DNA of 64,000 nt from a virus. The first letter of the stretch is position 1. The number at the start of each line of letters is the position of its first letter. The stretch lies in the IMG/VR virus record IMGVR_UViG_3300022074_000004; one strand, given 5' to 3'. Below the pieces are notes generated by a model. That model made no database searches, was not told the DNA's origin, and saw nothing but the letters and a program-made list of their open reading frames with translations. The position numbers and the translations under genes are program-made. This document shows positions 1 to 51,298 of the stretch, in pieces.

Positions 1-8
1 ATGATGAT

Positions 9-32395: not shown

Positions 32396-32424
32396 TTGAC
32401 AAAATCTAAATCTTCGACTAAAAT
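32396..32424 (+). promoter_or_regulatory. Sigma70-type (early) promoter
   Basis: TTGACA-17 bp-TAAAAT upstream of 32448. Confidence 0.8.
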
Positions 32425-33775: not shown

Positions 33776-34005
33776 TCACCTTCAGCGTCACCTTCACGGA
33801 CATGATGCACATATATGTCATCTTCACACGTCATCTTCACGGACATGATGTACATGTATGTCATCTTCACATGTCACCTTCAGTGTCACCTTCACGGACA
33901 TGATGTACATGTATGTCATCTTCACACGTCACCTTCACGTACATCATGCGTAGATGGACAGTCTGTAAAGTGTCACCTTCATAGTCACCTTCACGTACAT
34001 CATAC
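33775..34005 (+). repeat. Hierarchical tandem array with 11 copies of GTCAYCTTCA
   Basis: Decamer starts at 33775, 33787, 33817, 33830, 33860, 33873, 33885, 33915, 33928, 33972, 33984; 12/43/43-bp sub-units form ~98-bp super-units. Confidence 0.95.
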
Positions 34006-34055
34006 GTTATGTTTGTTTTGTGTGGAGCAATCCTCAAATTTACCTTGATTAAATC

Positions 34056-34226
34056 ATGACTGAAGACACCTTCAAATGGTGGGGAGGGAGCATCAATGAC
34101 CTCTCTGAGAAACAGGTTGAAGAACTGATCAACTTCAACCATGTCGAGACAGATCTTGCCGATCTGATTGACGATCAACCACAATTCGATATGGAGGCAT
34201 ACCTCAATGGAACGATTGACTACTAG
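34056..34226 (+). CDS. Hypothetical acidic protein (56 aa, not in track)
   Basis: MTEDTFKWWGG...FDMEAYLNGTIDY*; lies downstream of the dyad at 33956 and a TATGTT box. Confidence 0.65.
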   Translation: MTEDTFKWWGGSINDLSEKQVEELINFNHVETDLADLIDDQPQFDMEAYLNGTIDY

Positions 34227-34382
34227 TGAGATTGTTAAAAACACATCTTCACTTGGCCCACCAACCCCTCACAACATTGCTTGCATCTCTAGTGCTTTTA
34301 ATTCTAGAATGATTCGGAGGGCTATGGAGGCTGAACGCAGAAGGCTTGCTAAAGCACAAAACAAAAACAAATCCAAAGGACA

Positions 34383-34598
34383 ATGAACGAAACTGAAACC
34401 GTCAATGTTTTGCATCACATGGAAGATCTGAGGAAAGCCTGGAAAGCCCAGGACTTCAGATTTACTAAAGAACAGAAAGAGCAGTACGACCTGCTGCTAG
34501 CAGCTCGTCGTGACCGTGTCAATTTTTTTCATAAAAATAATATGGTTTTCAAAGGTCCTAAGATTTGTAAAGAAAAGGAAGAAACTGTTGAGGAATAA
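34383..34598 (+). CDS. Conserved cyanophage-type hypothetical protein
   Basis: AAGGA RBS; LRKAWKAQDFRFTKEQKEQYDLLLAARRDRV. Confidence 0.75.
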   Translation: MNETETVNVLHHMEDLRKAWKAQDFRFTKEQKEQYDLLLAARRDRVNFFHKNNMVFKGPKICKEKEETVEE

Positions 34599-34745
34599 TT
34601 TCCTTTTTTGTTCATGATTCCAGGGTTGCGTCTCACCTGTCTAATTGGTAACTTCTATGTGGCCGCACTTAACACAACTTGTCAGAGTGTAACGTTTTAT
34701 GTAAACGTTTGTGTATTGTGCAGACGAGCAAAATCATTGGTATAT

Positions 34746-34865
34746 GGGATCCTGGACCCTCTGAGAGGCTGCTGCAAGCCTCTCTAAGGCCCTTCTGAGC
34801 AGGGGCTGAACGATCCACCTCGATCTACCTGGATCAAGGCCCTTCCTGGGCCTCCCAGGCCCCTT
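34746..34865 (+). other. GC-rich multi-hairpin intergenic element upstream of the helicase
   Basis: Consecutive stems gagaggc/gcctctc, gccctt/aggggc, gatcca/tggatc, and ggccc/gggcc or cctggg/cccagg. Confidence 0.5.
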
Positions 34866-34884
34866 TAAGAAAATTCACCCCCAT

Positions 34885-36087
34885 TTGACCTTGACCCAGA
34901 TCTCATTACGAGACCACCAAGTCTCAGCCTGCGACTCGATGAAGCGTTCGAGCCTGGGCCAAATCATTATGCCAACTGGATCTGGCAAAACTATTTGCAT
35001 GATCCAGGATTGTATTGACAGATTTACACTTTTAGAGAATAAACCTGCGAAAATGATTGTTGTTGCCCCCAGAATTGTTCTGGCACAACAATTATGCGAT
35101 GAATTTATTAAATATGAAGTAAATGCTGCTGTTTTTCATGTTCACAGTGGAAGAGTACAACATTTCAGTTCAACAGATGCAGTTTACATCAAAAGATGGT
35201 CTGAGCAAGCATATAGGCATCAAATTTACTTTACAACATATAATTCTCTTGCAACTTTGGTTAAGGCAAAGATTCATGCAGATACGATATATTTTGATGA
35301 GGCACATCACAGTGTTAAAAGACATTTTTTCCCTGTGTGCGAAGTCGCTTCAGCTGATTATAGCGACCGCACTTTTTGGTTTACTGCTACTCGCAGGGTT
35401 TCTAATGATCTTCTGAAACCAGGAATGAATGACGAAGATGTTTATGGTAAAGTTTTGCACACGGTATCTCTCAAGGAACTGGTTGATAAAGGTTATATTG
35501 CACCAGCAAAAGTTTCTGTGAGTTCATTTGATAAAGTTAAAAAGGATGATTTGACTTATCAAATTGAAGCTGATAATTTAATTCAAACTATTGACAATGG
35601 TGGAAAGAATAAAATTTTAATTTGTTGTAGATCGACCCGTCAGATGATGGGGATGATACATGGAAGCGATTTAAGTGTCAAGTTGAAAGAGAGAGACTTT
35701 GATCTTTTAACAATAACGTCTAAGTATGGGGCAACTCTGAATGGTCATCGCATTAGCCGATCAGACTTCATGCTGCTGTTAAATGAATATGGAGAGAACC
35801 CTGACAAAAAGTTTTGTGTTTTTCACTACTCAATTCTGACAGAAGGTATAAGCATCAATGAACTCGATAGTTGCGTTTTCTTAAGGAACATGAACGTGGT
35901 TGCCATGCAGCAATGTATCGGTCGCGTAATCAGGAAAGGGAGGGATTCTTACGATGGGGAGAGTAAGGTGGCAGAGTTGGCAATACCTTCCTACTCTAAT
36001 GTTGGCGTGAGTACAGCACGGCAATTAAACAACATTGTCGATGCAACTTTCAATCAAGGTCAATCCTTAATCTCCGAAATTAAATGA
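34885..36087 (+). CDS. Superfamily 2 DExH-box helicase (ResIII-like)
   Basis: LRDHQ Q-motif, PTGSGKT Walker A, DEAHH motif II, TAT motif III, ILTEGI motif V, QCIGRVIR motif VI; TTG start. Confidence 0.9.
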   Translation: MTLTQISLRDHQVSACDSMKRSSLGQIIMPTGSGKTICMIQDCIDRFTLLENKPAKMIVVAPRIVLAQQLCDEFIKYEVNAAVFHVHSGRVQHFSSTDAVYIKRWSEQAYRHQIYFTTYNSLATLVKAKIHADTIYFDEAHHSVKRHFFPVCEVASADYSDRTFWFTATRRVSNDLLKPGMNDEDVYGKVLHTVSLKELVDKGYIAPAKVSVSSFDKVKKDDLTYQIEADNLIQTIDNGGKNKILICCRSTRQMMGMIHGSDLSVKLKERDFDLLTITSKYGATLNGHRISRSDFMLLLNEYGENPDKKFCVFHYSILTEGISINELDSCVFLRNMNVVAMQQCIGRVIRKGRDSYDGESKVAELAIPSYSNVGVSTARQLNNIVDATFNQGQSLISEIK

Positions 36088-36362
36088 CTATGATTGAATC
36101 AATGATCGTTCCTGAAACCGATTTTAATCGAGGAACATACAGAGAATTGCTTGCCATTTTGCAAGAAATTCCTGATGAATGTCTCGACAAGCCCGTTGTC
36201 ATTTGTGATGGAGAAATCGAGAAGAAATACATCTCTTCCGATGGTGTTAGTTATCCAACTCCAAATGGAGAAGAATTTAGAGAGGTGAGGGGCATAGGAT
36301 TCACTGGACCTGGGTGTAAAAAACTTGGGTCTGGGAACATGTTACTTTACGTTGGAGATTAG
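36084..36362 (+). CDS. Hypothetical protein
   Basis: ATGA-coupled to the helicase; TYRELLAILQEIPDECLDKPV. Confidence 0.7.
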   Translation: MTMIESMIVPETDFNRGTYRELLAILQEIPDECLDKPVVICDGEIEKKYISSDGVSYPTPNGEEFREVRGIGFTGPGCKKLGSGNMLLYVGD

Positions 36363-36499
36363 TATGCAGTTCTTAATTACTTTAACTGCACTTCGTATGG
36401 TCATCGGATCTTTGTGGTTATTTGTTCTTCTTGAACAAGCATACTACATCCAAACAATCTACAACCAGTACTCATCACTCACTTGTAACTTGTCGTAAC

Positions 36500-37414
36500 A
36501 TGAAGAATACGCACCTGGAGCATCCTGAAGACGCCATTCTGACTGGTGATCTCAATGTCCTCGATTGGTTTATTGAAAAAGAAAGTCACTTGTCATGCAA
36601 GATCGACGGATCTCCGGCGATTGTGTATGGAACTGATCCTGAGACTGGGACATTTTTTTGTGGAACAAAAAGTGTTTTCAATAAGAGAAAAGTAATGATC
36701 CCGCACAGTCATGAAGAAATTGATTTTCATTATGCCGGGAAAGGTGAATTAGCTGACATTTTACATGCCTGTTTTGATAACGTACCAAGGACTGATCGTA
36801 TCATTCAAGCTGATTGGATTGGGTGGGGTGGTACTAATTATTTTAAGCCTAACTTAATTGAATATGTTTTCCCATTTTGCGTCTCAGAGACTATCATTGT
36901 CTCTCCGCATACATATTACGAAACAAAGACCACTCTTCGTGAGGCTGAAGCCAGTTCTTTGAGCGAACACTTAACGGGCGGTGATAGGTGTTTTTACTAC
37001 CAACCAGACTGCGATGTTAGCTCACATAGGAAAGAATTGCGCTTAAATTGTGATTTTGCGCGACAAATGGCTACGTTGTGTGAGTTTGTAGACAAAAAGA
37101 AGGCATCAGAAATTAAAAAATACATAAATTCAGTCATCATGCACGGGAAGTTGAGCCTGATGGACGATGCTGAAACTGCTGAAAAATTGCAAATTGACAT
37201 CAACTTGATACGATTGTGGAAACTTGTATTAAGAATCAAGGACGAATTGTTTCTGTATATTGATGAGCCAGAAGATGTTGATTGTTACATCAATGATGAA
37301 CCATCATTCCATGAAGGTTATGTTATGACAAATCGGTATGGTATGTATAAGTTAGTTGATCGGGAAACATTTAGTAGATTTAATTTCCTACAGCATGTTG
37401 CGAGGCAGGCTTAA
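36500..37414 (+). CDS. Conserved T4-like phage protein (DUF6267-like) with ligase-type KxDG motif
   Basis: MKNTHLEHPED N-terminus, KIDGSPAIV, GTKSVFNK, HEGYV, YKLVDRETFS. Confidence 0.7.
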   Translation: MKNTHLEHPEDAILTGDLNVLDWFIEKESHLSCKIDGSPAIVYGTDPETGTFFCGTKSVFNKRKVMIPHSHEEIDFHYAGKGELADILHACFDNVPRTDRIIQADWIGWGGTNYFKPNLIEYVFPFCVSETIIVSPHTYYETKTTLREAEASSLSEHLTGGDRCFYYQPDCDVSSHRKELRLNCDFARQMATLCEFVDKKKASEIKKYINSVIMHGKLSLMDDAETAEKLQIDINLIRLWKLVLRIKDELFLYIDEPEDVDCYINDEPSFHEGYVMTNRYGMYKLVDRETFSRFNFLQHVARQA

Positions 37415-37481
37415 TATGTGTGACAAAATACACAATAACCTAAATAATATGTCAGGAGATAATAACAAAGGAGGTTCACCT

Positions 37482-37688
37482 TTGTCAAAAACCGACTGGA
37501 ATAAAAGTATTTTAGAAATGCAGTTGAGACGAAGTGAATTGCAAGCACAAATAGATCAAATAAATGAAACTATAGAGTATTTGACACAACAAAGGGATGA
37601 GATTATGAACTGGCAGGGAAACAATGAAGAAAAACTTTATCGTGATGTTCTGGGGATGGAGTTTTGGGACAGTGCTGAGCCTGATTAG
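37482..37688 (+). CDS. Hypothetical coiled-coil protein
   Basis: AGGAGG RBS before an in-frame TTG; CTAAATA upstream. Confidence 0.6.
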   Translation: MSKTDWNKSILEMQLRRSELQAQIDQINETIEYLTQQRDEIMNWQGNNEEKLYRDVLGMEFWDSAEPD

Positions 37689-37789
37689 ATTGTCTTAATC
37701 TTTACAAAACTCAACTCTGATCTAAAGACACAGTATTGTCAATCACAGTTCAGGCCGTTACCTTGTAAAGGTAGTCTATCTGCTACCCA

Positions 37790-38086
37790 ATGACTTCCGC
37801 GAGCTTCGACCCCTTTCCAGTTTCAAGTTTTGTAAAATCTTACAACAAAAATTCAAGAACATTTCAGCTGAACATTAGCGATAAAGATGTAATCTCTTGG
37901 TGCATGTCTGCCAATGAAATGTACGACAGTGCAGATATAGATCCGATTGATAAGATTCTAAGATCTGAAGTAGTTGCTTGGAGTGAGAGGCAACAAAAGA
38001 TTGTGCTTCATTGTCTTTCTATCTGCAAATCTTTTATCTATGGTGCTGAAGAAGTGCATAGTAAAGTAATGGCCCAGTGCGAATGA
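37790..38086 (+). CDS. Hypothetical protein
   Basis: 98-aa ATG ORF on the coding strand. Confidence 0.6.
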   Translation: MTSASFDPFPVSSFVKSYNKNSRTFQLNISDKDVISWCMSANEMYDSADIDPIDKILRSEVVAWSERQQKIVLHCLSICKSFIYGAEEVHSKVMAQCE

Positions 38087-38277
38087 TTTCTTAAGTATCC
38101 TGCAATACAGCTTTGCTGAGTTGCATTTAGTAATGTTACTTGGAGGTTGCGCCCATTTTACAGCTCTCTACTATGAGACTGTTCGGGGGGATAACCGAAC
38201 ATAACCAACGCTATCACCAACATGGCAATGCAACATCTTTACAAAATTCAAAAGAGACGGAATGGTTATTTTCATGA

Positions 38278-38520
38278 ATGGGAAGATCTTCCTTCAAAAC
38301 CTGCTCCATTAGATATTACAATCAGAAATATGCACTATTATATGAATCTTTACAGGAATTGCACATTTCAGGAGGTACGGGTCAAGTGATACGCAGAACT
38401 TTTAGATTTTACTTTTTCAATGTTCTTGGGGAAGAATTTACCATTGCCGCCAAGTGTTTTGGTTCTGCGACGAAACAGCTTCCAGAGTGGTTTGTGGTTG
38501 ACCACTATCGTGTCAGTTAG
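38278..38520 (+). CDS. Hypothetical protein
   Basis: ORF followed by a terminator. Confidence 0.5.
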   Translation: MGRSSFKTCSIRYYNQKYALLYESLQELHISGGTGQVIRRTFRFYFFNVLGEEFTIAAKCFGSATKQLPEWFVVDHYRVS

Positions 38521-38551
38521 TAGAATTTGATTGGTCATCATGAGTTGTTCC

Positions 38552-38579
38552 AGAGGGTCATTTCGACCCTCTTTTTTTT
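38552..38579 (+). terminator. Rho-independent terminator
   Basis: agagggtc-atttc-gaccctct followed by a T run. Confidence 0.9.
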
Positions 38580-38638
38580 GTTTGAGTTTCATCGAAAAAA
38601 ACAATGTGTGAGCAAAATTTGTTCTAAATAGCATTGGA

Positions 38639-38667
38639 TTGACACTTCATTGTTATTAAAGTATAAT
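38639..38667 (+). promoter_or_regulatory. Perfect-consensus sigma70 promoter
   Basis: TTGACA-17 bp-TATAAT upstream of 38696. Confidence 0.9.
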
Positions 38668-38695
38668 GTAAAAGTAACCACCACTCCTACAACTT

Positions 38696-38878
38696 ATGCC
38701 ATCAACTGCTTATCGCGCAAAAAAGTCAAAGTATAGAATTACGATAGAACTAGAGGCTTTGGATGATTTCTGCCCAACGAACATCGACTTCAACAAAGTA
38801 TTTTCTCTTCATGGAGCTGAGCGAGTGACATTCAGATATGTGGAGAATCTCTCCACTCCAGATCGCTACTCAGCTTGA
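38696..38878 (+). CDS. Conserved cyanophage-type hypothetical protein
   Basis: KYRITIELEALDDFCPTNIDFNKVFSL; consensus promoter upstream. Confidence 0.75.
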   Translation: MPSTAYRAKKSKYRITIELEALDDFCPTNIDFNKVFSLHGAERVTFRYVENLSTPDRYSA

Positions 38879-39139
38879 TTGGTTTATCTCCTTTCACAAA
38901 CAAACCATAGCACAAAACAGTGCGGTGTGAACAGTCTCCCGCAAAAATGAGTATTCATTACTACCATTTTGGATTATATGTCTTGTGTTGCTAATTGTTG
39001 AGTTGCAATAAGGGCATATTAAGCTATATTTGCTTTGCAGTTCAAAAAGGATTTGCCACTGGGTAATTTTAGACACATCACATCGGTCGATAACTAAGGA
39101 GAGATATTTTATCTCTCCTTTTTTTGTGTTTATTTCATG

Positions 39140-39196
39140 TGGCACTTGCAGAACTGGCATAGATCAGGTCGTGGGGTCAAGAGCTGTGGGTATCAT
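39140..39196 (+). promoter_or_regulatory. Dyad site + -10 box promoter
   Basis: TGGCACTT-GCAG-AACTGGCA, 31 bp, TATCAT. Confidence 0.7.
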
Positions 39197-39286
39197 GTGT
39201 GTGGGGACATAGATCCTGTCCTGATGGTGTTAGGGCTCGTTTCCTGACACCAAAAATACACAAAAAACCCTATTTAACACAAACAA

Positions 39287-39532
39287 ATGCGTAATTTTCA
39301 GAGTTTTGATGACTTTGTTGAGCTGATTGTTCCCTTTTCTATTGGTGCAGTGAGCTTTTCTCTGCTTGCTATTGCTTCTCAGCAGGCAATTTTTAACCAA
39401 AATGCAAAAGACAAGTGTGCTCTGGCCTCTACTCACCGTCTCGTAGTTGTCCAGAGCTTCTTCGGTGATGCCTATGGTTGCGTGAAGCTATTCCAATGGT
39501 ACAATCCAGAATCTGTCACTGACCGGGCTTGA
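39287..39532 (+). CDS. Hypothetical membrane protein
   Basis: Hydrophobic segment LIVPFSIGAVSFSLLAIA; HRLVVVQSFFGDAYGCV. Confidence 0.7.
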   Translation: MRNFQSFDDFVELIVPFSIGAVSFSLLAIASQQAIFNQNAKDKCALASTHRLVVVQSFFGDAYGCVKLFQWYNPESVTDRA

Positions 39533-39557
39533 CACTTATTTGCGATCACACTATTTT
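39529..39557 (+). promoter_or_regulatory. Sigma70-type promoter
   Basis: TTGACA-17 bp-TATTTT upstream of 39579. Confidence 0.65.
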
Positions 39558-39578
39558 CAGAAGCAAAACTAATTCAAA

Positions 39579-40022
39579 ATGCTAACTACAGAAAGACAAC
39601 TCACAAAACTTTCTCTTTCACAAAAGAATTGGAATAGAACTGATGAGTTGATGAAACATGCGTTTCGCCTTGCCCAACTCCTCAACAAGGACTACTACGA
39701 TCGCACAGGTAAGAAGGATTTGCAGTTTTATGTAGAGTTTCCGACCAAAGATTACATCAAAGTTATGGAGACTTATGATGGTAAAACTCAGGTCCATTGT
39801 CAAATTGACATTAAAACCAGTGAACTTAAAACTCCATCAAAAACGGCAGTAATTGCCAAGCTAATTGACTACGATCACACCGCGAGGTATTTTGTCCTGG
39901 ACTTGCATGAGCTTCTGCAACGCTGCGAGTTTACATCGAGATATTTGTTTTCTCAAGTACATAACAATCGCAGTCTTGGGAAACTAGCATACACCAGGCA
40001 CTTCAATTCAGAATTTAATTGA
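39579..40022 (+). CDS. Hypothetical protein, distant paralogue of 41278-41691
   Basis: KDYIKVM..VHCQIDIKTSELKTPS. Confidence 0.7.
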   Translation: MLTTERQLTKLSLSQKNWNRTDELMKHAFRLAQLLNKDYYDRTGKKDLQFYVEFPTKDYIKVMETYDGKTQVHCQIDIKTSELKTPSKTAVIAKLIDYDHTARYFVLDLHELLQRCEFTSRYLFSQVHNNRSLGKLAYTRHFNSEFN

Positions 40023-40327
40023 TTATGACTTCTAAACTAAAGTTCACCCAATTTTCAGAATTACTTGATGAAATTAAATGTGATCCAGAAATGCAGCATC
40101 GCATTGATGAATTGGAAAATTTGCAATGCCACTTAAGCCAACAGGAAAAGTTTAAGACTGTTGTGCAAAGGTCTATTGATAAGCTAGAAGATGCAATCAC
40201 TGTAACTTATAGCGACATCGACACGAGTCTTCCGCCAGATGAAAGGGTTCGTAAACTGAGAAACATTGTTCCAGAAGTGCGGACAATGATGCTGGGGACC
40301 ATTGATGAGTTGAAAATCTTATTATGA
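40019..40327 (+). CDS. Hypothetical protein
   Basis: Coupled ORF. Confidence 0.7.
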   Translation: MIMTSKLKFTQFSELLDEIKCDPEMQHRIDELENLQCHLSQQEKFKTVVQRSIDKLEDAITVTYSDIDTSLPPDERVRKLRNIVPEVRTMMLGTIDELKILL

Positions 40328-40557
40328 GCCGTAAAACTTCACATCTCAGTTACAAAAAATTACGTTCAATTTGGTTCACCTTTTACATGAAACTGCTTCT
40401 CATTGCTATTGTCTGTTTTTGGGGATGGAGCCATGACCCAACACGACAATTTGTTTCCGGTCTGCTCTATAAAGTTGCTGATGCAGTTGAGCCTGGAGCA
40501 CCAAAAACCAATTCACAAACTATTGGCGAACGAATTGATTCATTCATGGGAAACTGA
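40324..40557 (+). CDS. Hypothetical membrane protein
   Basis: Hydrophobic MKLLLIAIVCFWGW segment. Confidence 0.65.
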   Translation: MSRKTSHLSYKKLRSIWFTFYMKLLLIAIVCFWGWSHDPTRQFVSGLLYKVADAVEPGAPKTNSQTIGERIDSFMGN

Positions 40558-40647
40558 TGGCGTACACTACCATTTCGATTTTGAGCATTATCTTTTTGAT
40601 TAGTTTCATGAACTCACCACAAAACCGCACCATGTAATTTATTTACC

Positions 40648-40845
40648 ATGAAAATCAGCTATTTGGTTTCACTCTCCTATCGGGAGCGAGTGTTGTTGAC
40701 CCAGGCTATTGAAAACCATCAAATTAGGCTGGAGCAATATCAACAAAAAACAACAATCAAAAACGATGAGCGTCATGTTGTTCGCATCATGCAGCGTGAT
40801 CTTAAACAACTTGAAATGAAACTGTTAGCAAAGGCAGTTAATTGA
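40648..40845 (+). CDS. Hypothetical protein
   Basis: ATG ORF on the coding strand. Confidence 0.55.
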   Translation: MKISYLVSLSYRERVLLTQAIENHQIRLEQYQQKTTIKNDERHVVRIMQRDLKQLEMKLLAKAVN

Positions 40846-40864
40846 TCGGCACAGCACAGCTCGC

Positions 40865-41281
40865 ATGGCAGCGAGACTGCGAGAATATAAGTGGGTTACA
40901 TCACTCGATCTGAGCGACTTCCCACTTTCATTCATGAGCAAACCAACCTGCAACTGGCATTTAACTCTCAACGAAAAGGGAGAAAGAGAAACAGTTTTAG
41001 AATTTAAGAGAAAGAAATATCAAAAAAGAAAAGATAGAGATGCCATATATTTTGTTGTACGAAGATATTTTAAGGAGAGTGAGAAAACTGGATATAATCG
41101 TATTGCCATCGAGACAGTTTTTATACACTATGATCGTGATCAGATCATCAATTTTATTAGAGGTCAAGACATTTCTACGGGCAAATATGTTGAGACTACA
41201 CAAGCGACAAAGCTACTAAATTTATATCAGGGATCTATGGTTCCTGACGGCAATGGTGGTTACGAAGAGGTGAAAGCGTGA
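40865..41281 (+). CDS. Hypothetical protein (start may be 40934)
   Basis: ORF coupled to the next gene. Confidence 0.65.
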   Translation: MAARLREYKWVTSLDLSDFPLSFMSKPTCNWHLTLNEKGERETVLEFKRKKYQKRKDRDAIYFVVRRYFKESEKTGYNRIAIETVFIHYDRDQIINFIRGQDISTGKYVETTQATKLLNLYQGSMVPDGNGGYEEVKA

Positions 41282-41691
41282 TGACAGATCCAAAACAAGA
41301 ACGAAAAGTTTTGAACGATGTGCAGAAACTTGTCTGGAAAATTAACCAGACATGGGAAGATCAAGCTGTGGATAGTTGCTTCTCATTTCTCACCATCGAG
41401 GGAACAGATTCGCATTATCAAAAACGGTCAAAGTATCTGAAAATATGCAAAAAACAAGTCATAAATGGCAGAATGGGATTTGGCAGTATCACTTTTATGT
41501 TTATCAATAAGTTTAATGGTGAGGTGCATAAACCAGTATCAACGTCATCACCAACTCGCGATGTTCGTTACGAACTAAAAGAACTTGTAAAGAATCCAAA
41601 GACCATAGATCCTGAGGGCAATTTTTTGAGAATGTCATTTATACTAAAGGACGAGATAACAAATAGGGATCTCAACAAACTCATTCGTTAA
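41278..41691 (+). CDS. Hypothetical protein of the KYxKI...FI.K..GEV.KP.S..P...VRY phage family
   Basis: SKYLKI...FINKFNGEVHKPVSTSSPTRDVRY; GAGG RBS. Confidence 0.7.
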   Translation: MMTDPKQERKVLNDVQKLVWKINQTWEDQAVDSCFSFLTIEGTDSHYQKRSKYLKICKKQVINGRMGFGSITFMFINKFNGEVHKPVSTSSPTRDVRYELKELVKNPKTIDPEGNFLRMSFILKDEITNRDLNKLIR

Positions 41692-41696
41692 TCATT

Positions 41697-41900
41697 ATGC
41701 AATTCCGTGTCACCAAAATCAACTTCGACTTTGAAGATGATAACTTTGAGATGTCTCCGATTGACCAACAACAAGTGATTAAGGAAACACTAGCTACAAC
41801 ATGGGAAGCGTGTGATGACGATGATCTCATCGAAGAAATTACATCAGTAACAGGTTGGTGTATCAATTCTATTGAATTTGTAAACTTCTCCGCTAATTAA
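41697..41900 (+). CDS. Conserved cyanophage-type acidic hypothetical protein
   Basis: MQFRVTKINFDF..WEACDDDDLIEEITSVTGWCINSI. Confidence 0.8.
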   Translation: MQFRVTKINFDFEDDNFEMSPIDQQQVIKETLATTWEACDDDDLIEEITSVTGWCINSIEFVNFSAN

Positions 41901-42000
41901 ACAAGATGACTTTCGAGGAATTGAAACTACTGATTCTACTGTTGTCACCGGCAATGCTCATGTCGGTATTATTACTGATAACGTTTGCTGCCGAGACCTA

Positions 42001-42056
42001 TGACAGCTGACAAAGTGGCACGGTTCAGCTCACAGATTTAAGAGCTGGATTATTAT
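42001..42056 (+). promoter_or_regulatory. Dyad site + -10 box promoter
   Basis: TGACAGCT-GACA-AAGTGGCA, 30 bp, TATTAT. Confidence 0.7.
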
Positions 42057-42086
42057 GTCTTTATTCAACCAACCCCATTTATCATC

Positions 42087-42512
42087 ATGGGCACCAGAGC
42101 ACGCATTGCGTTCACTGATCGCAGCGCCAAAGTTTTCACATCTGCTTATCACCACTGGGATGGTTATCCCACCTGGCTTGGTGTTAAGCTGCAAGAACAT
42201 TACGGCAACCGAACTAGAGCCACAAAACTGGTCGCAGGGGGCGACATGTCATCATGTTGGACAAATAAAAGATGGCAAAAAAATGGTTGTGACATCGAAG
42301 TTCATGATTATGGCCCACAGTATTATGCAGATCGGGGAGAAAAGGCAGACGCTGAGATTTGTTTGGGGATGAACAAATTGCTTGAATTGTGTGAACAAGA
42401 TGGTGTAGAGTATTTGTATGTTTACAAGCCTTATTCTGGGTGGAAGTGTTACAACACCAGGCAATATGATAAAAACTATGGTCAAATTGAACCTCTCCCC
42501 ACTGTGTCATGA
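42087..42512 (+). CDS. Conserved phage hypothetical protein
   Basis: MGTRARI...YHHWDGYPTWLGVKL...GGDMSS...EYLYVY. Confidence 0.8.
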   Translation: MGTRARIAFTDRSAKVFTSAYHHWDGYPTWLGVKLQEHYGNRTRATKLVAGGDMSSCWTNKRWQKNGCDIEVHDYGPQYYADRGEKADAEICLGMNKLLELCEQDGVEYLYVYKPYSGWKCYNTRQYDKNYGQIEPLPTVS

Positions 42513-42805
42513 TTGCAATCAGGAATCCCAACACTTATCAAGCCTTGAAGAGTTTAATTGTCCTTTATTATGAGGCTAGTAATGAATATGAACAGTTAAA
42601 TAGTTTGTCTACTCAATTATTAACTGTCAAAAAATTTTCAATTACTGAGTTTTCAAAAGTTTTAAGGGAGAAAGACAATAAACATCGACAAGTTATTCAA
42701 CACTTGTGCAATCTCACATTGCATCCAAGTTTTATTGAATTGACAGCACACGAACAGAATCAAATTCTCGATTTGTTCAATCAACCAGTACATCAACCAA
42801 CCTAA
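42509..42805 (+). CDS. Hypothetical protein
   Basis: ATGA-coupled ORF. Confidence 0.6.
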   Translation: MIAIRNPNTYQALKSLIVLYYEASNEYEQLNSLSTQLLTVKKFSITEFSKVLREKDNKHRQVIQHLCNLTLHPSFIELTAHEQNQILDLFNQPVHQPT

Positions 42806-42806
42806 A

Positions 42807-43046
42807 ATGAAAACATTTATTCTTCTCTCATCACTGCTGTTTGCTGCCAACCCAGCATCTGCACATCTCCTCCGCCATCATCACCATCATCACTATCCTA
42901 AAATTAAAACACATAAACATTATCATACTCACTACAAAACTGGCGTAACCCACTTCCACAAGCACAAGCACGGTGGTGGTCATGGTCATCATGGAACAAA
43001 ATCTCGCCACAGTGTTCCAACTTGGTTGCACATTCATTTTCACTAA
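42807..43046 (+). CDS. Secreted histidine-rich peptide
   Basis: Signal peptide MKTFILLSSLLFAANPASA followed by 60 aa containing 22 His. Confidence 0.7.
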   Translation: MKTFILLSSLLFAANPASAHLLRHHHHHHYPKIKTHKHYHTHYKTGVTHFHKHKHGGGHGHHGTKSRHSVPTWLHIHFH

Positions 43047-43054
43047 AATATAAA

Positions 43055-43210
43055 ATGGATCATCTTGAAATGCTGTCTAAACGTGAACAACTCATGGAGG
43101 ACATTGATTGCATCATCGAATCAAATTTTGGTGAGGTTGAGTATAAGGACGATGTAATTCGCCAACTCTGTGGTGCTGTCTGCAAAAACTTTCCCACTCC
43201 TACTAACTGA
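43055..43210 (+). CDS. Conserved cyanophage-type hypothetical protein
   Basis: REQLMEDIDCII...LCGAVCKNFP. Confidence 0.7.
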   Translation: MDHLEMLSKREQLMEDIDCIIESNFGEVEYKDDVIRQLCGAVCKNFPTPTN

Positions 43211-43215
43211 AACTC

Positions 43216-43365
43216 ATGGAATTTAAGGTCACTCTCACTCACAAGGACAACTCCGACCAATACAAGTTTTTGGTCGTTGAAGATTGTAAAGACAGAGATG
43301 AATTGATTGACCACATTTGGGAGACCGAACCAGATTGGGCCATTCATGCTATTGATCTAGTATGA
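43216..43365 (+). CDS. Hypothetical protein (49 aa, not in track)
   Basis: MEFKVTLTHKD...WAIHAIDLV*; fills an operon gap. Confidence 0.55.
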   Translation: MEFKVTLTHKDNSDQYKFLVVEDCKDRDELIDHIWETEPDWAIHAIDLV

Positions 43366-43367
43366 GT

Positions 43368-43425
43368 GGACAGTTGATTAAAGTGTCCTCTTACAGGTCC
43401 CAGGGTCACGATCTCTGATTATTAT
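43368..43425 (+). promoter_or_regulatory. Dyad site + -10 box promoter
   Basis: GGACAGTT-GATTA-AAGTGTCC, 31 bp, TATTAT. Confidence 0.7.
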
Positions 43426-43448
43426 TCAGTTGTTCAGCCATTTCACTT

Positions 43449-43706
43449 ATGCAACTTCTAAACGAACGCAACAATGTTGTTGTTGATTTTTATCCATTAA
43501 AGGATTGGAACAACAACACGATCGAAAACAAAATGTTGAAAGTTGTCACCTTGAATGGTAAAACTTTCTTGAAAAGAATCGTGGATGAAGAGCGGTACGA
43601 TGGTGAAGTCATCAACCGTAAACGCAAATTTGGTTTTATTCAAACTGACATGCACATTGCACGCCAGTATTACTCTGAGCATCTGAGCACATTCATTCTC
43701 AACTGA
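43449..43706 (+). CDS. Conserved cyanophage-type hypothetical protein
   Basis: MQL...VVDFYPLK; promoter upstream. Confidence 0.7.
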   Translation: MQLLNERNNVVVDFYPLKDWNNNTIENKMLKVVTLNGKTFLKRIVDEERYDGEVINRKRKFGFIQTDMHIARQYYSEHLSTFILN

Positions 43707-43728
43707 AAACTTTTCATTTAACAAAATC

Positions 43729-43896
43729 ATGGCTACCTACAAAGTTCATTGTTCCCAACTCGGTGAGACAGAGTATCACACATCTGAAGAACGTGCTGTT
43801 GATGTATGTTTCAGTATGCACAATGAAAGTGGCGGATATGCTTATGTTGAAGACTTTTATGGTCATAAAATCTACGAGTATGGTGAATTAAAATAA
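43729..43896 (+). CDS. Hypothetical protein (55 aa, not in track)
   Basis: MATYKVHCSQLGE..DVCFSMHNESGGYAYVED..EYG. Confidence 0.65.
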   Translation: MATYKVHCSQLGETEYHTSEERAVDVCFSMHNESGGYAYVEDFYGHKIYEYGELK

Positions 43897-43935
43897 ACTA
43901 TTGTCATCTTCACCTTCACCTTCGCGGACATTATC

Positions 43936-44361
43936 ATGCCAAACTGGTGTCACAACAGAGTTGTAATCTCTCACATGGAAGCTCAGCCAATTAAAGAGTT
44001 GGCTGACATTTTCCAAAAAGATCAGCCATTTGCTACACTTGTCCCTCAACCTGATTGGGAGAATACGCCAAACGATAAAGGAGAATTGCCTGTTGTTAGT
44101 GATCTGGGCTTAGAATTTGATGGTAAACAAGATTTGCGCTGGTATGATTGGCGGCTTGATAATTGGGGATGCAAGTGGGATTTGAATGAGGGAGATGTTA
44201 CGGTGAAGTTATCAGAAGATAAAACTATTTTGCAGATGTGGTTTGAAACTCCGTGGGGGCCACCGGATAAGATTAAAGAACACATTGATAACATGAATGA
44301 TGGTTTCGAGATCGAGTGGCACTGGGATGAGCCAGGGATGGGATCAGCAGGTTATCTTTAA
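43936..44361 (+). CDS. DUF1281/YubB ferredoxin-like domain protein
   Basis: MPNWCHN, WYDWRLDNWGCKWD, FETPWGPP, WDEPGM motifs. Confidence 0.75.
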   Translation: MPNWCHNRVVISHMEAQPIKELADIFQKDQPFATLVPQPDWENTPNDKGELPVVSDLGLEFDGKQDLRWYDWRLDNWGCKWDLNEGDVTVKLSEDKTILQMWFETPWGPPDKIKEHIDNMNDGFEIEWHWDEPGMGSAGYL

Positions 44362-44394
44362 CTTTAATCTTTTTCATTCATTCATTTCAATTCA

Positions 44395-44583
44395 ATGGCA
44401 CACGCTACAGCACTTAAAATCAACAAAAAATCTTTTTCAAATGGAGAAGATTATCACGTTGGAATGAAAGGATTAGATTTAATGATTACACATATGCCAG
44501 GGTGGACAATAAAAACAGAAATCGTCTCGGACGAGCATGGACACCTGGGCCTGCATGTATGGCACGAGAAGATCCAATCCTGA
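44395..44583 (+). CDS. Hypothetical protein
   Basis: ATG ORF between genes. Confidence 0.55.
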   Translation: MAHATALKINKKSFSNGEDYHVGMKGLDLMITHMPGWTIKTEIVSDEHGHLGLHVWHEKIQS

Positions 44584-44628
44584 AACTGTCCTAGCAGAGG
44601 TCGCAGGGTCGTGACCTGAGCTTAAATT
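44572..44628 (+). promoter_or_regulatory. Dyad site + -10 box promoter
   Basis: ATCCAATC-CTGA-AACTGTCC, 31 bp, TAAATT. Confidence 0.6.
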
Positions 44629-44652
44629 GGGTTCAATCAACACCGGAAACCA

Positions 44653-45102
44653 ATGCCGACACCAATCAGCACCATGAGCCGTCGCCAGTTCGACGAATAC
44701 AACATTTGGATCGATAAGCTGGATCATATTTGGCACATTTCAAGAGAGGATTATAGGCAGTTGGCTATCATCAACAACGCCCTCATCAGTTGGACTGAGA
44801 GAGAAGTCAATGGTGAGATTTATCGTGATGAAGATACCAATAAATGTTATCGACGTGTTCGTGATTCAAAAACTGGTAAAATCATTGGAGAGTATCGTAT
44901 CAACGATCGTGAAACTGGTTTATATAAAAAAGCAACTGCTATTGCTAATCGTAACCAGGGTTGGATTTATTTTCAGGGAGATTGTCGTGGTTGCATGATT
45001 TACTTTTATCGGACAGCAATGTGTGGTGGCCCTTATGTTATCGGTCCTGATGATAACATTGCTAGCTGCTATTCTACACAAGCACTTGCTTGTCACTTCT
45101 AA
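44653..45102 (+). CDS. Conserved phage hypothetical protein
   Basis: WTEREVNGEIYRDE...DRETG...YFQGDCRGCMIY. Confidence 0.75.
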   Translation: MPTPISTMSRRQFDEYNIWIDKLDHIWHISREDYRQLAIINNALISWTEREVNGEIYRDEDTNKCYRRVRDSKTGKIIGEYRINDRETGLYKKATAIANRNQGWIYFQGDCRGCMIYFYRTAMCGGPYVIGPDDNIASCYSTQALACHF

Positions 45103-45122
45103 ACTTTTAAGGAATTAAAATT

Positions 45123-45407
45123 ATGAATTACACACTCAAAGAACTTCAGCAACGTGTCAACAAAATGATCGAACAACAGGGGGAAGATGCACATTGTGCT
45201 GCCTGGATTTACACAAAGGAAGATTGTCATTTGAAGGATGAAAATGGTGAGGTTGATTATGATAATGTTGTAGAAGATCCTGATGTTGTTGAGCGTATCT
45301 TCGATGATGTTGGCAACATTGATCACATTTACACTGTAATTCAAGAGTGTGTAGATGAAGTTACAGAAGAGCAAGTTAAGTTACAGCAACAGGAGGCAAA
45401 GTCATGA
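45123..45407 (+). CDS. Conserved cyanophage-type hypothetical protein
   Basis: AAGGA RBS; MNYTLKELQQRV..QQGEDAHCAAWIYTKED. Confidence 0.8.
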   Translation: MNYTLKELQQRVNKMIEQQGEDAHCAAWIYTKEDCHLKDENGEVDYDNVVEDPDVVERIFDDVGNIDHIYTVIQECVDEVTEEQVKLQQQEAKS

Positions 45408-45619
45408 CACAAGTTACAACAACTGAAACTCGAATTGCAATCTACGAGGTGCGAAATGTCTTCGGTGAAGATAAGGCGTACCCAGTCAATGATGTTGCCG
45501 AGGCTTTCTGTGATCTGACAAATACAAAAACATTATTGTCTCGTCATAAAAGTGTGATCGAAAGTCTTGGTTATACAGTGAAGTTTGTTTCACCATCAAT
45601 CGAAAACTTTAACTGTTGA
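45404..45619 (+). CDS. Conserved phage hypothetical protein
   Basis: GGAGG RBS; VRNVFGEDKAYPV..AEAFCDLTNTKTL..LGY. Confidence 0.75.
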   Translation: MTQVTTTETRIAIYEVRNVFGEDKAYPVNDVAEAFCDLTNTKTLLSRHKSVIESLGYTVKFVSPSIENFNC

Positions 45620-45701
45620 GAATCTGATAGCCAATTCTGAGACTGTCTACTCTCAGGGTTGAAAGGCTTGCAGGGTCATCATCCCAGAGCTAGCATTAGA
45701 G

Positions 45702-45806
45702 TATAACACACACAGAGAGGTTGATCACCTATGACTGGGTCTCCCCCGAAGACCCACCACACACACGGAAGAGTATTAGGAGAGGCTTGAGAACCTCTCC
45801 TTTTTT
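45702..45806 (+). ncRNA. Candidate ~105-nt small RNA with own promoter and terminator
   Basis: Dyad 45629-45648 and TAGCAT at 45691; two ACACACAC tracts, hairpin tgggtct/agaccca, terminator aggagagg/cctctcct-T5; no convincing ORF. Confidence 0.5.
45778..45806 (+). terminator. Rho-independent terminator
   Basis: aggagagg-cttgagaa-cctctcct followed by a T run. Confidence 0.85.
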
Positions 45807-46290
45807 ATGTCATCTTCATTGATTCTTTACCTGTTAATGTTTTCACCTTCACTAGCATCATCTTCACTCTCATTGTCATCTTCATTATCATCATTTTGAG
45901 CATTATTGCCTACAAAATAGCATAAAAACACATTAAAAATACATTTATAAATATACTTTCGTTTTTTATTCAAATGCACTCCCGATACGCCCAGCAGTGC
46001 CTCCAGAGCATCTCAACAGCATCTAAAACACTAAATCATACTCTATATGTGTCATCTTCACAATCATCATCACATATACACATACATATGTCATCTTCGC
46101 TATCATCATCATATTCATAATTTTTATCTTTATCTTTATACCTGTGGAATGCAGCTGTGGAATTGTGGAATAAATCTTTTATCATAAACTTTTTCTCTCA
46201 ATAGTATATGATTGTAAATTTTATGATTTATATTTTATTAGAAAAACATTTGATTTTTATTTCTCATAAACGTTTCATAATGCTCTGATA
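45807..46290. other. Gene-free, AT-rich, G-poor tract with GTCATCTTCA copies (possible unwinding element)
   Basis: No ORF in track; decamer copies or variants at 45809, 45842, 45857, 45875, 46051, 46090. Confidence 0.45.
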
Positions 46291-46321
46291 ATGCTCCGGG
46301 GTCTTGTGATCTTAGCCTGCG

Positions 46322-46350
46322 AGCTTAGCACCGACCGCCCGTTTTGTCAA
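46322..46350 (-). promoter_or_regulatory. Minus-strand sigma70 promoter firing into the AT-rich tract
   Basis: TTGACA-17 bp-TAAGCT (with TG extension) on the reverse strand. Confidence 0.7.
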
Positions 46351-46448
46351 GACCCCCGCCATAAAAATTCACAAGGTCTCGGTTTTCAAACAATCCGCAT
46401 ACCTCCGAGTTTTATGGTATAATAAGCAAAAAAACACTATAAGGCAGT

Positions 46449-46491
46449 GGACGGTTTATGAAGTGGTACAGTGCCAGTTTTTTATGTGTCT
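46449..46491. promoter_or_regulatory. Tandem double dyad site 1
   Basis: GGACGGTT-TATG-AAGTGGTA cag TGCCAGTT-TTTT-ATGTGTCT. Confidence 0.65.
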
Positions 46492-46584
46492 TTGTAACAA
46501 TGTAAAGATTCATAAAATGGTAGTGAGTGACACAGCGCCACGGGCCACGGTGGGCTAGAGTAAGAATAGAGCCTTATGAGGGGT

Positions 46585-46627
46585 GGACAGTTTATGAAGT
46601 GGCACTGTGACACTTTGAGAACTGGCT
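46585..46627. promoter_or_regulatory. Tandem double dyad site 2 (contains left arm of the 31-bp inverted repeat)
   Basis: GGACAGTT-TATG-AAGTGGCA ctg TGACACTT-TGAG-AACTGGCT. Confidence 0.75.
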
Positions 46628-46650
46628 GATTGTTACAGTTTGATATAATT

Positions 46651-46716
46651 ATTTTATGGCAGGAGTAGTGGCGATTATTGTTGTCATCGAGGTTACCCCA
46701 CCTCTCGTTTGATTTG
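46651..46716 (-). ncRNA. Putative small RNA, copy A of a three-member family
   Basis: TG-N-TATACT -10 box at 46727-46722; GAGGT-N6-ACCTC hairpin; ends CTCCTGCCATAAAA; ungapped similarity to copies B and C. Confidence 0.55.
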
Positions 46717-46721
46717 ATCAT

Positions 46722-46815
46722 AGTATAGCAGCTCTCAGGGGTCTCTCAGGGCATCCGTGGACACTTATTGGACTGGCACAATAGAGGTAGCGGTGCCGCG
46801 ATCTGAGGTTATTCT
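46722..46815. promoter_or_regulatory. Bidirectional promoter centred on one dyad
   Basis: Dyad GGACACTT-ATTG-GACTGGCA (46759-46778) with TATTCT 31 bp to the right (+) and TATACT 31 bp to the left (-). Confidence 0.75.
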
Positions 46816-46838
46816 TTTATCAGTAACGTTCTTCCCCC

Positions 46839-47045
46839 ATGAGCTACGAAGTGTTTCACCGGACTTGGTGGCGGCGCAATGATGAGTGGCCTGATGGCCG
46901 GGAGCCCGGTTGCGGCCGTGCTTACCACATCGGCTGGGCTGCTGACGAAGCCGAAGCCAGTGCTATGTGTAAGGAGTGGAACAGCAAGCATAAGCCCGGG
47001 CTGTTTTCTGACAGAGCAGAGTACAGCGAGGGCCGGTTCACATAA
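46839..47045 (+). CDS. Conserved phage hypothetical protein
   Basis: YEVFHRTWWRRNDEWPDGREPG...CKEWNSKHKPG..AEY; promoter upstream. Confidence 0.75.
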   Translation: MSYEVFHRTWWRRNDEWPDGREPGCGRAYHIGWAADEAEASAMCKEWNSKHKPGLFSDRAEYSEGRFT

Positions 47046-47084
47046 GCACTAAACTTTAACAGTATTTTTTTCCCCTTTTAAGTT

Positions 47085-47348
47085 ATGAACACTGAAACGT
47101 ATGACCTGCCCGCTCACTGGGCAAGCTATCTTATCAACGGCGATGCAACGTCATTCAGCCTGAATGATGATGGCGGAGACGCTGAGATCGCATTGATTGA
47201 TGAGGTTATGTCGAACATTGACCAGAAAGGAAACGCCATCATTGATGTTGATGCAGAAGAAAGTTTCTTCAAAAAGTATCACGATGCTCACATGTATGGC
47301 GTAATGGCTGGTACTTGCCTAACGTATAAGCTGACGTGGATTGACTGA
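47085..47348 (+). CDS. Conserved phage hypothetical protein
   Basis: TYDLPAHWASYLINGDATS motif. Confidence 0.75.
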   Translation: MNTETYDLPAHWASYLINGDATSFSLNDDGGDAEIALIDEVMSNIDQKGNAIIDVDAEESFFKKYHDAHMYGVMAGTCLTYKLTWID

Positions 47349-47412
47349 TCATAAACTTTAACGTTATTCTTTTTACCTTCCGCATCATAAGTCACCTTGG
47401 CGGTCATCATCG

Positions 47413-47469
47413 GGCCACCTGACACACTGGCACAACAGAGCTTGTGACCTTGAGAGCTGCGGCTATTCT
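47413..47469 (+). promoter_or_regulatory. Dyad site + -10 box promoter
   Basis: GGCCACCT-GACA-CACTGGCA, 31 bp, TATTCT. Confidence 0.7.
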
Positions 47470-47500
47470 TTAGTTGTCAACGTTTTTCCCCTTCTGAGCC

Positions 47501-47749
47501 ATGACCACCACCGTCGTCAAGCACTGCTTCTATAAGGTCGAGATTGACACTAAAGACTCTGTGATCCCCATCATCTACTTTCGTAAGGTGAGACGCTGTA
47601 CCACTGCTAAGGGCATGGATCGTCAGCACAATCGCATCGTTAACGAGACTGTGGAGGCATGGCGTCCTTTTGACCGTCAGATCACGCGCTACACTGTTTC
47701 TCGTGTGCCAGCTGACGTAGTGGTCAAGGGTGAGATCCGCAACGCCTGA
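47501..47749 (+). CDS. Conserved cyanophage-type hypothetical protein
   Basis: FYKVEIDT..PIIYFRK..TTAKGMDRQHNRIVNETVEAW. Confidence 0.75.
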   Translation: MTTTVVKHCFYKVEIDTKDSVIPIIYFRKVRRCTTAKGMDRQHNRIVNETVEAWRPFDRQITRYTVSRVPADVVVKGEIRNA

Positions 47750-47777
47750 TCGGCTCCCACTATGCTAGGATATGGTC

Positions 47778-47878
47778 AGTCAAAGGGGGCACCGCCTATG
47801 GCCTGATTCGCTACAACCTAACGAGAGGCGATGTAGCCTCGCAGACGACAAAGGTCGCCACTGCCCCTGTAACAAAAT
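47778..47878 (+). ncRNA. Putative small RNA, copy C (with 5' extension)
   Basis: TG-N-TAGGAT -10 box at 47766; 46/63 ungapped identity to copy A over 47815-47877; GAGGC-N6-GCCTC hairpin; GGGGCA/TGCCCC closing stem. Confidence 0.5.
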
Positions 47879-47893
47879 ATAATTATGTAACAT

Positions 47894-47936
47894 AACCACA
47901 TATAAAAGTGTCACAGTGCCACTTCATAAACTGTCA
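47894..47936. promoter_or_regulatory. Tandem double dyad site 3 (contains right arm of the 31-bp inverted repeat)
   Basis: AACCACAT-ATAA-AAGTGTCA cag TGCCACTT-CATA-AACTGTCA; 47905-47935 is the exact reverse complement of 46586-46616. Confidence 0.75.
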
Positions 47937-47950
47937 CATATCTTATAGGT

Positions 47951-48016
47951 ATTTTATGGCAGGAGAGCTTACGAACTTTATCGTCTACAGGGCGACCCAG
48001 CCCCTCCTCTGATTTG
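47951..48016 (-). ncRNA. Putative small RNA, copy B
   Basis: TG-N-TATGAT -10 box at 48027-48022; begins CAAATCA and ends CTCCTGCCATAAAA like copy A, in the same register relative to the -10 box. Confidence 0.55.
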
Positions 48017-48021
48017 AACCA

Positions 48022-48062
48022 ATCATATCAGACCCAGCTGCGCTGTCTGTATCGTGTGATAC
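48022..48062 (-). promoter_or_regulatory. NtcA-type promoter (GTA-N8-TAC-N21-TAN3T)
   Basis: Reverse strand reads GTAtcacacgaTAC, 21 bp, TATGAT. Confidence 0.55.
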
Positions 48063-49604: not shown

Positions 49605-49633
49605 TTGACGAGGATATATAAGTTTGTTATAAT
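49605..49633 (+). promoter_or_regulatory. Sigma70-type promoter
   Basis: TTGACG-17 bp-TATAAT upstream of 49657. Confidence 0.8.
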
Positions 49634-50890: not shown

Positions 50891-51298
50891 ATGCCTTTAG
50901 AGAGAGTTAGTAAAGCGTTTAAGGATATTAGTTTATCTTTTTCAAGAAACCCTTTAACTGGCGATATATTTCCACTTAAGAATGAGACTGCTATTGCAAG
51001 ATCTGTTCGAAATATTGTATACACTCAATTTGGTGAGAAATTTTTTAATGTTCCATTTGGATCAGATATTACAAATTCATTGTTTGAAAATTTAGATTCT
51101 ATTAGTGCTGGTGTCATAGAAGATAGAATTAGAGTTTCGATTAGAGATTATGAGCCAAGAGTTAGATTGATTAGAGTTAATGTACGTCCTAATTTTGATA
51201 ACAATGAATTTAATGTAACAATAGTATATGAAATTATTGGGATTGATATTAACTCACAGGTACAGGAAATAGAATTTATTTTACAGCCAACGAGATAA
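50891..51298 (+). CDS. gp25: Baseplate wedge subunit gp25
   Basis: FKDISLSF..NP..LKNETAIARSVRNIV.T..GEKFFN..FGS..YEPRV; adjacent to gp6. Confidence 0.92.
   Translation: MPLERVSKAFKDISLSFSRNPLTGDIFPLKNETAIARSVRNIVYTQFGEKFFNVPFGSDITNSLFENLDSISAGVIEDRIRVSIRDYEPRVRLIRVNVRPNFDNNEFNVTIVYEIIGIDINSQVQEIEFILQPTR

Follow-up and report, generated by a model that had tools for sequence, protein, structure and literature searches.

The DNA considered here is a viral stretch of 64,000 nucleotides (nt) (IMG/VR record IMGVR_UViG_3300022074_000004; hereafter the window) that is best assigned to a divergent T4-like cyanophage. About 40 small plus-strand open reading frames (ORFs) form a block at ~31-50 kilobases (kb), lying between giant ORFs and followed on its 3' side by a gp25-like gene (50891-51298) and a gp6-like gene (51302-53224), a layout that agrees with those of S-CAM4 and Syn9. 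Individual small genes share 80-87% DNA identity with Synechococcus phages; a near match was not found for the first 20 kb of the window, and the best identity of its gp25 across IMG/VR is 66%. Two close relatives, the contigs L312 and L326, were recovered through a sequence word belonging to a small element described below (element E), and not through gp25. The subject of this analysis is a dyad of 20 base pairs (bp) that recurs within the small-gene block, upstream of -10 boxes.

The first-pass annotation had listed about 14 copies of this dyad. When its degenerate (IUPAC) pattern was run over the window with up to three mismatches, there were 18 matches, compared with 6.3 ± 2.6 in shuffled sequences, and all matches with a 4-bp spacer and no more than two mismatches fell within 33956-47936, except for those at 1595 and 15038. 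To avoid circularity, we also trained a symmetric position weight matrix on 30 sites from six other phages (Syn9, P-TIM40, P-SSM2, P-HM2, S-PM2 and S-CAM4). At a threshold of 12 bits or more, this matrix recovered 11 sites from the window where Markov simulations predict 0.41, and with both measures pointing the same way the repeated dyad is clearly real. Nine of the 11 are copies that had already been listed, scoring 12.8-29.5 bits; the remaining two are at 47706 and at 15038, the latter inside a giant ORF and probably a chance match.

Comparison across phages changes the description of the dyad. Its consensus is gTGNCAST-N6-ASTGNCAc, with a 7-6-7 core (TGNCAST-N6-ASTGNCA) in place of the 8-4-8 core with an N4 spacer that was first proposed. 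The extended dyad is therefore 22 bp long (1+7+6+7+1); in the matrix, the flanking G/C positions carry information and the central N6 close to 0 bits. As originally asserted, the dyad does not fit the consensus of CRP (TGTGA-N6-TCACA) or NtcA (GTA-N8-TAC), and the refined form matches neither. The copies differ considerably in quality. Eight are strong (33956, 39140, 42001, 46585, 46608, 46759, 47413 and 47917; 14.5-29.5 bits by the matrix), and two are moderate, 46472 at 12.8 bits and 43368, in which both arms are perfect and the spacer is longer by one base. At 44572, 45629, 46449 and 47894 a single arm has decayed and the copies are weak. The earlier count of about 14 needs correcting in this respect, as four of the copies are half-decayed.

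Eight of the copies are single sites, and their spacing to the -10 box is narrowly set. At seven of them the gap between the dyad and a TAnnnT box is 30-32 bp (32, 31, 30, 31, 31, 31 and 31), the same values on re-measurement as those given before. None of the eight has a usable -35 element, the best hexamers matching TTGACA at only two to four of six positions, and the claim that these promoters lack TTGACA is thereby upheld. The sites are positioned at the boundaries of small-gene groups, which agrees with the proposal that the dyad class heads such groups. The first, at 33956-33975 (14.5 bits), is followed by TATGTT at 34008-34013 (gap 32) and by a block comprising an ORF at 34056-34226, a helicase gene (34885-36087) and a DUF6267 gene (36422-37414). 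The dyad at 39140-39159 (25.7 bits) is directly 3' of a terminator (39096-39120), 20 bp past it, and precedes TATCAT at 39191-39196 (gap 31) and the ORF 39287-39532; that at 42001-42020 (22.3 bits) precedes TATTAT at 42051-42056 (gap 30) and the ORFs 42087-43365. The copy with perfect arms and the longer spacer (43368-43388) is paired with TATTAT at 43420-43425 (gap 31) and the ORFs 43449-44583. At 44572-44591 the right arm is intact and the left arm has three mismatches, and this half-decayed copy is followed by a -10 box, TAAATT, at 44623-44628 (gap 31) and the ORFs 44653-45619. Finally, the sites at 46759-46778 (20.4 bits) and 47413-47432 (20.2 bits) each have a TATTCT box 31 bp on, at 46810-46815 and 47464-47469, ahead of the ORFs 46839-47045 and 47085-47348 and of the ORF 47501-47749, respectively. 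The dyad and -10 box of the last are retained at orthologues in six other phages.

The eighth single site, at 45629-45648, is both half-decayed and the spacing outlier. It had been assigned a gap of 42 bp, that is, 31 bp plus one helical turn, and a suitable box is indeed present (TAGCAT, 45691-45696); alignment on the spacer shared with other promoters favors TAGAGT at 45697-45702 instead, with a gap of 48 bp. The unit behind this promoter (45697-45801) is only ~90 nt long, ends at a strong terminator (45778-45801), and corresponds to a small RNA or else to a 19-codon ORF (45731-45790). The further dyad found by the matrix, at 47706-47725 (13.5 bits; absent from the first list), is within the 3' end of the ORF 47501-47749; an identical copy in S-CAM4 has TATACT 31 bp on, and in the window the nearest box is TATGCT at 35 bp.

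The window also contains promoters of a different kind. At 38639-38667 (plus strand) there is a consensus TTGACA-17-TATAAT promoter, and TTGACA-17-TAnnnT promoters occur at 32396-32424, 39529-39557 and 49605-49633 (all plus strand); none has a dyad. For those at 32396, 38639 and 39529, the three cited previously as lacking it, this was confirmed by the matrix scan. The dyad promoters are therefore distinct from the TTGACA class, as the first-pass annotation held in describing a second promoter class. What does not stand is any reading of that class as peculiar to this genome, as it is common to all T4-like cyanophages tested.

The suspicion that similar motifs exist in T4-like cyanophages proved well founded. 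Matrix and pattern scans of related genomes located the same dyad, 31 bp before a TATAAT-like -10 box and clustered in one region per genome, in Syn9 (44.8-57.7 kb), P-TIM40 (45-55 kb), P-SSM2 (54-69 kb), P-HM2 (33-40 kb), S-PM2 (2-23 kb) and S-CAM4 (44.6-55.1 kb). Dyads paired with -10 boxes include those at 44776, 46291, 47206, 48560 and 52998 in Syn9 and at 45031, 50297, 52468, 53289, 53763, 54331 and 55026 in P-TIM40. In freshwater S-CRM01 the pattern gives 20 sites, compared with two for a reversed-pattern control. Outside this group we regard the dyad as absent, the numbers being 0 for T4, 2 for the SAR11 phage HTVC008M, even though it is classed with the cyanophages, and 3 for Ma-LMM01. 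At the promoter of a conserved 82-residue gene, the dyad and the -10 box are kept in seven phages and the DNA between them has diverged. Among 80 uncultured IMG/VR contigs collected via gp25, 11 contain dyad sites (55 in all), with a peak at 30-33 bp in the gaps to the -10 box that is seen for the gene direction alone. The hosts of the dyad-bearing phages are high-light and low-light Prochlorococcus and marine and freshwater Synechococcus, and the dyad appears to follow host group rather than phage lineage. These comparisons indicate a lineage-wide promoter class of the T4-like cyanophages tested, tied to picocyanobacterial hosts.

The same comparisons bear on whether the repeats serve chiefly to delimit cassettes or points of recombination and only secondarily as promoters, after the manner of the promoter-early-stem-loop (PeSL) cassettes that have been proposed to shuffle small genes in T4-type phages. 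The sites do fall exactly where small-gene groups meet, within a hypervariable region, the gene content between them differs from phage to phage while the sites persist, and many cyanophages have a hairpin between the dyad and the -10 box. Nevertheless, we consider this the least probable of the explanations weighed here: a fixed distance to the -10 box, in the gene direction only, is a property of promoters, constraint on the sequence of the dyad persists even in P-HM2 with its AT-rich genome, which implies a sequence-specific reader, and shuffling could be a by-product of having repeated promoters. The PeSL cassettes, which Arbiol and colleagues reportedly described in 2010, are said to have ordinary sigma-70 promoters with a -35 element. 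They resemble the window units in that short promoter units, many with a hairpin, recur among the small early genes of a hyperplastic region. The window units differ in having an upstream dyad and no -35. Of six window spacers, only two fold better than shuffled controls.

Six of the single promoters of the window have a common module in this spacer, AGGTC-N3-GGGTC-N2-GAKCT, which starts 6 bp past the dyad and ends 5 bp before the -10 box (39166-39185 on the plus strand, 42027-42046, 43395-43414, 44598-44617, 46785-46804 and 47439-47458). It is complete even behind the half-decayed dyad at 44572, is retained in L312, and is best regarded as lineage-specific. We did not adopt the idea that it forms a terminator hairpin, given the folding result just mentioned. 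In other cyanophages, a hairpin, sometimes a terminator, is common between the dyad and the -10 box. A very regular cassette is seen in L164 (IMG/VR contig 3300020161_001543), where fifteen dyad promoters occur in 7 kb (329-6858) and nearly all of them have a GGGGGA...TCCCCC hairpin in this position.

The remaining listed copies form three tandem doubles, in each of which two dyads are 3 bp apart. The double at 46449-46491 combines a weak dyad (46449-46468) with one of 12.8 bits (46472-46491), that at 46585-46627 has dyads of 18.2 and 23.5 bits and is kept double in L312 and L326, and that at 47894-47936 joins a weak dyad (47894-47913) to the highest-scoring one of the window (47917-47936, 29.5 bits). 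At four or five of the six flanks there is a -10-like box 6-7 bp outside the near dyad, which places it 29-30 bp from the far dyad. Leftward, these are TATAGT (46436-46441, minus strand), 7 bp from the near and 30 bp from the far dyad of the first double, and, at the third, CATAAT (47882-47887, minus strand), with 29 bp between it and the far dyad. Rightward, the candidates at the second double are TATAAT (46644-46649) and TACAGT (46634-46639), the latter separated from the far dyad by 29 bp, and the third has TATAGG at 47944-47949 (30 bp from the far dyad). Because the outer boxes are at 29-30 bp from the far dyad, the doubles look like back-to-back divergent promoters, a better reading than that of double sites for one promoter.

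This arrangement is also relevant to the idea that the dyad is an operator, at which a phage-made repressor would close the early promoters at the middle phase in place of AsiA/MotA, with the polymerase using the -10 box (and extended contacts) without an activator. In the doubles, the second dyad covers -19 to -38 of the neighboring promoter, a classic repressing position, and the half-decayed dyads at 44572 and 45629 keep an apparently intact promoter. Moreover, cyanophages lack motA and asiA (PMC5780444), so that some other way of shutting off early genes is needed. On the other hand, the single dyads are centered near -53, outside the polymerase footprint and poorly placed for simple occlusion, strict phasing to the -10 box together with the lack of a -35 argues for a positive contact, and no candidate repressor gene was identified. 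We therefore regard repression as unlikely, if somewhat less so than a primary role in cassette exchange.

Two of the doubles face copies of a small element, E. E1 (46651-46725, plus strand) is 3' of the double at 46585, which would drive it, and its paralogues E2 (47806-47879, minus strand) and E3 (47951-48025, plus strand) lie behind the leftward CATAAT and the rightward TATAGG boxes, respectively, of the double at 47894. The element is ~70 nt long and opens with ATTTTATGGCAGGAG. About 20 IMG/VR cyanophage contigs retain this 5' word, and in most of them a strong dyad lies within 90 bp upstream of the element; copies in relatives include L243:5475-5549, L240:5077-5151 (minus strand) and L312:9807-9881 (minus strand), among others. 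Its hairpin shows compensatory changes at three of four pairs, and its ATG opens a short ORF without conservation at the peptide level. Neither the window nor 14 related contigs matched any Rfam family, which for Cyano-1/Yfr2 held even at E = 10. Element E thus has the appearance of a conserved, structured RNA-like element that would be under dyad control. E3 is contained in the ~230-nt leader of the ORF 48180-49313, which the TATAGG promoter also faces. This ORF encodes a DUF932 protein of 377 residues, and its identification as psbA was ruled out; a scan of genome contigs found a single relative of the protein, in a Maricaulis metagenome-assembled genome (35% identity).

A regulator of host small-RNA genes offers a possible identity for the protein that reads the dyad. 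In marine picocyanobacteria, the palindrome CGRE1, 21-22 nt long, precedes a region that lacks a -35, and the GntR-family protein PlmA (PMM1637) binds it and activates transcription (PMC6191309). Were the phage dyads copies of the CGRE1 of host yfr2 genes, early phage transcription would be wired to nitrogen and high-light stress signaling. There is a likeness between the two systems (Lambrecht et al., 2018, PMC6191309), both having a palindrome of this length, read in the case of CGRE1 by the dimeric activator PMM1637, upstream of a core promoter and driving small RNAs. The extended phage dyad is 22 bp long with GT...AC ends, those dyads that are strongest or in tandem would drive a small structured RNA, which parallels the role of CGRE1 in the hosts, and PlmA is universal in, and restricted to, cyanobacteria (PMC6191309), which agrees with the host distribution of the dyad.

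The details, however, do not coincide. As described, CGRE1 has flanks of GTTG/GTTA, a conserved center of GTGWCAC/GTGTACAC, a start at -55 to -57 and a center near -46 (PMC6191309). In the phage dyad the flanks are GTGN, the N6 in the middle is unconserved and the center is predicted at about -53.5, and its 22-mer is predicted to start at about -62 to -64 if transcription begins 5-7 nt past the -10 box; the two differ in flanks and middle sequence and would differ in position relative to the start, a comparison made with the published description of CGRE1. The length of CGRE1 varies by ecotype (22 versus 21 nt; PMC6191309), whereas phages of all these hosts have a spacer of 6 nt, and CGRE1 reportedly has no further occurrence in MED4 (PMC6778093). 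In viral contigs, the CGRE1 pattern in its published form gave only unrelated coding-region matches. A hybrid guess built around the phage arm was rejected after producing just 10 unrelated metagenome matches, and two patterns with a GUGAGGA-type RNA start preceded by the dyad or by CGRE1 yielded one chance match and none, respectively, in viral contigs. PlmA is accordingly a tentative candidate, which we rate below even odds. To the same limited degree, it is conceivable that T4-like cyanophages borrow a conserved cyanobacterial regulator, with PlmA as the candidate, and so couple early transcription and a phage small RNA to the nitrogen and light status of the host.

Taken together, we think it probable that the dyad is the upstream recognition element of a cyanophage promoter class serving the small genes between the tail-fibre or giant structural genes and the gp25-gp6 baseplate genes, and that it is read by a dimeric activator. 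The promoter would consist of the dyad, a spacer of 29-33 bp (31 bp in the window phage) and a TAnnnT -10 box, with no -35 hexamer. A dimeric DNA-binding protein, already present when the phage DNA enters, would bind the dyad centered near -53, and, at a promoter too weak on its own, would recruit or stabilize the RNA polymerase of the host carrying the primary sigma factor. The phasing, the two-fold symmetry, the position of the center and the missing -35 all fit a dimeric activator that contacts the polymerase from upstream. The closest functional analogues are the Ogr/Delta-dependent late promoters of P2/P4, in which a dyad, TGT-N12-ACA, is centered near -55. They too combine a poor -35 with a two-fold symmetric activator site at about -55 and fixed phasing, but the sequences are unrelated, and their activator is phage-encoded and acts late, whereas the dyad genes are probably early.

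If the genes are early, their reader must already be present, as either a conserved host protein or one carried in the virion. Phages of both Prochlorococcus and Synechococcus have the site and non-cyanobacterial relatives do not, which makes a conserved protein of cyanobacteria the most likely reader and a protein injected from the virion the alternative. Generalist T4-like cyanophages transcribe their early genes even when the Prochlorococcus or Synechococcus strain is resistant (PMC6708340), and because of this, and of the way the motif follows host group, a host protein is favored.

The class has probably been reported already. Syn9 and P-TIM40 carry the dyad 31 bp from the -10 box, before small genes and in one region. 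A 2016 study by Doron and colleagues is said to have described a novel regulatory element for the early genes of these two phages, with host-like promoters for their middle genes. The separate, host-like TTGACA class that coexists with the dyad in the window is in keeping with that scheme. The window phage differs from these two in being divergent and in adding the tandem back-to-back sites and a spacer motif of its own. Our literature search turned up neither a description of the dyad motif nor a paper connecting PlmA with the early promoters of cyanophages.

Several points weigh against an activator-read promoter class of this kind, or against its equation with the published one. Across phages the gap varies from 29 to 33 bp, and at one site of the window it is 42 or 48 bp; in some IMG/VR lineages, the dyad before element E is at other distances from the nearest -10 box. 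The four listed copies with a decayed arm keep the rest of their promoter, and the dyad may for this reason not be strictly required. Sequence alone does not distinguish activation from repression, and it is from sequence that we infer the start sites, the early timing, the activation and the identity of the reader. The probable equation with the element of Doron and colleagues was drawn from the coincidence of the two phages and the region and from what that study is said to have described.

The existence of the dyad is thus mostly known, and its reader is the only point of real interest; to what is known the window contributes a divergent member, the back-to-back arrangement of double sites and a conserved small RNA that would be under dyad control. 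The main primary producers of the ocean lose a large share of their cells to T4-like cyanophages, whose timing of gene expression is only partly understood. The dyad would be the one cis element common to these phages for the genes presumed to be expressed first. Knowing its reader would explain how the host is taken over, and could explain intracellular resistance and the dependence of infection on light and nutrients.

Some further features of the block are worth recording. The genes starting at 46839, 47085 and 47501 have a common leader, AACGTT...TTTCCCC, right before the ATG (46816-46838, 47060-47084 and 47470-47500), and no Shine-Dalgarno sequence was found at any of the three. On the minus strand, the TATAGT promoter beside the double at 46449 faces a GC-rich stretch (46290-46441) with a long-range stem (GGGGTCTTG ... 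CAAGACCCC); this stretch is 82% conserved in L312 and L326 and may be a further small RNA. The adjoining AT-rich region (45810-46290) has TCATCTTCA-type repeats and, on its minus strand, two acidic mini-ORFs of ~50 residues each (46036-46185 and 45827-45979), and the sole late-type box in the window, TATAAATA, is at 45946. The giant ORFs are at 3-17105, 17567-27754, 27873-30914 and from 53243 onward. Those flanking the small-gene block at 3-17105 (>5,700 residues), 17567-27754 (3,395 residues) and 53243-64000 (>3,586 residues) presumably encode virion structural or fibre proteins, by comparison with the annotation beside gp6 in S-CAM4.

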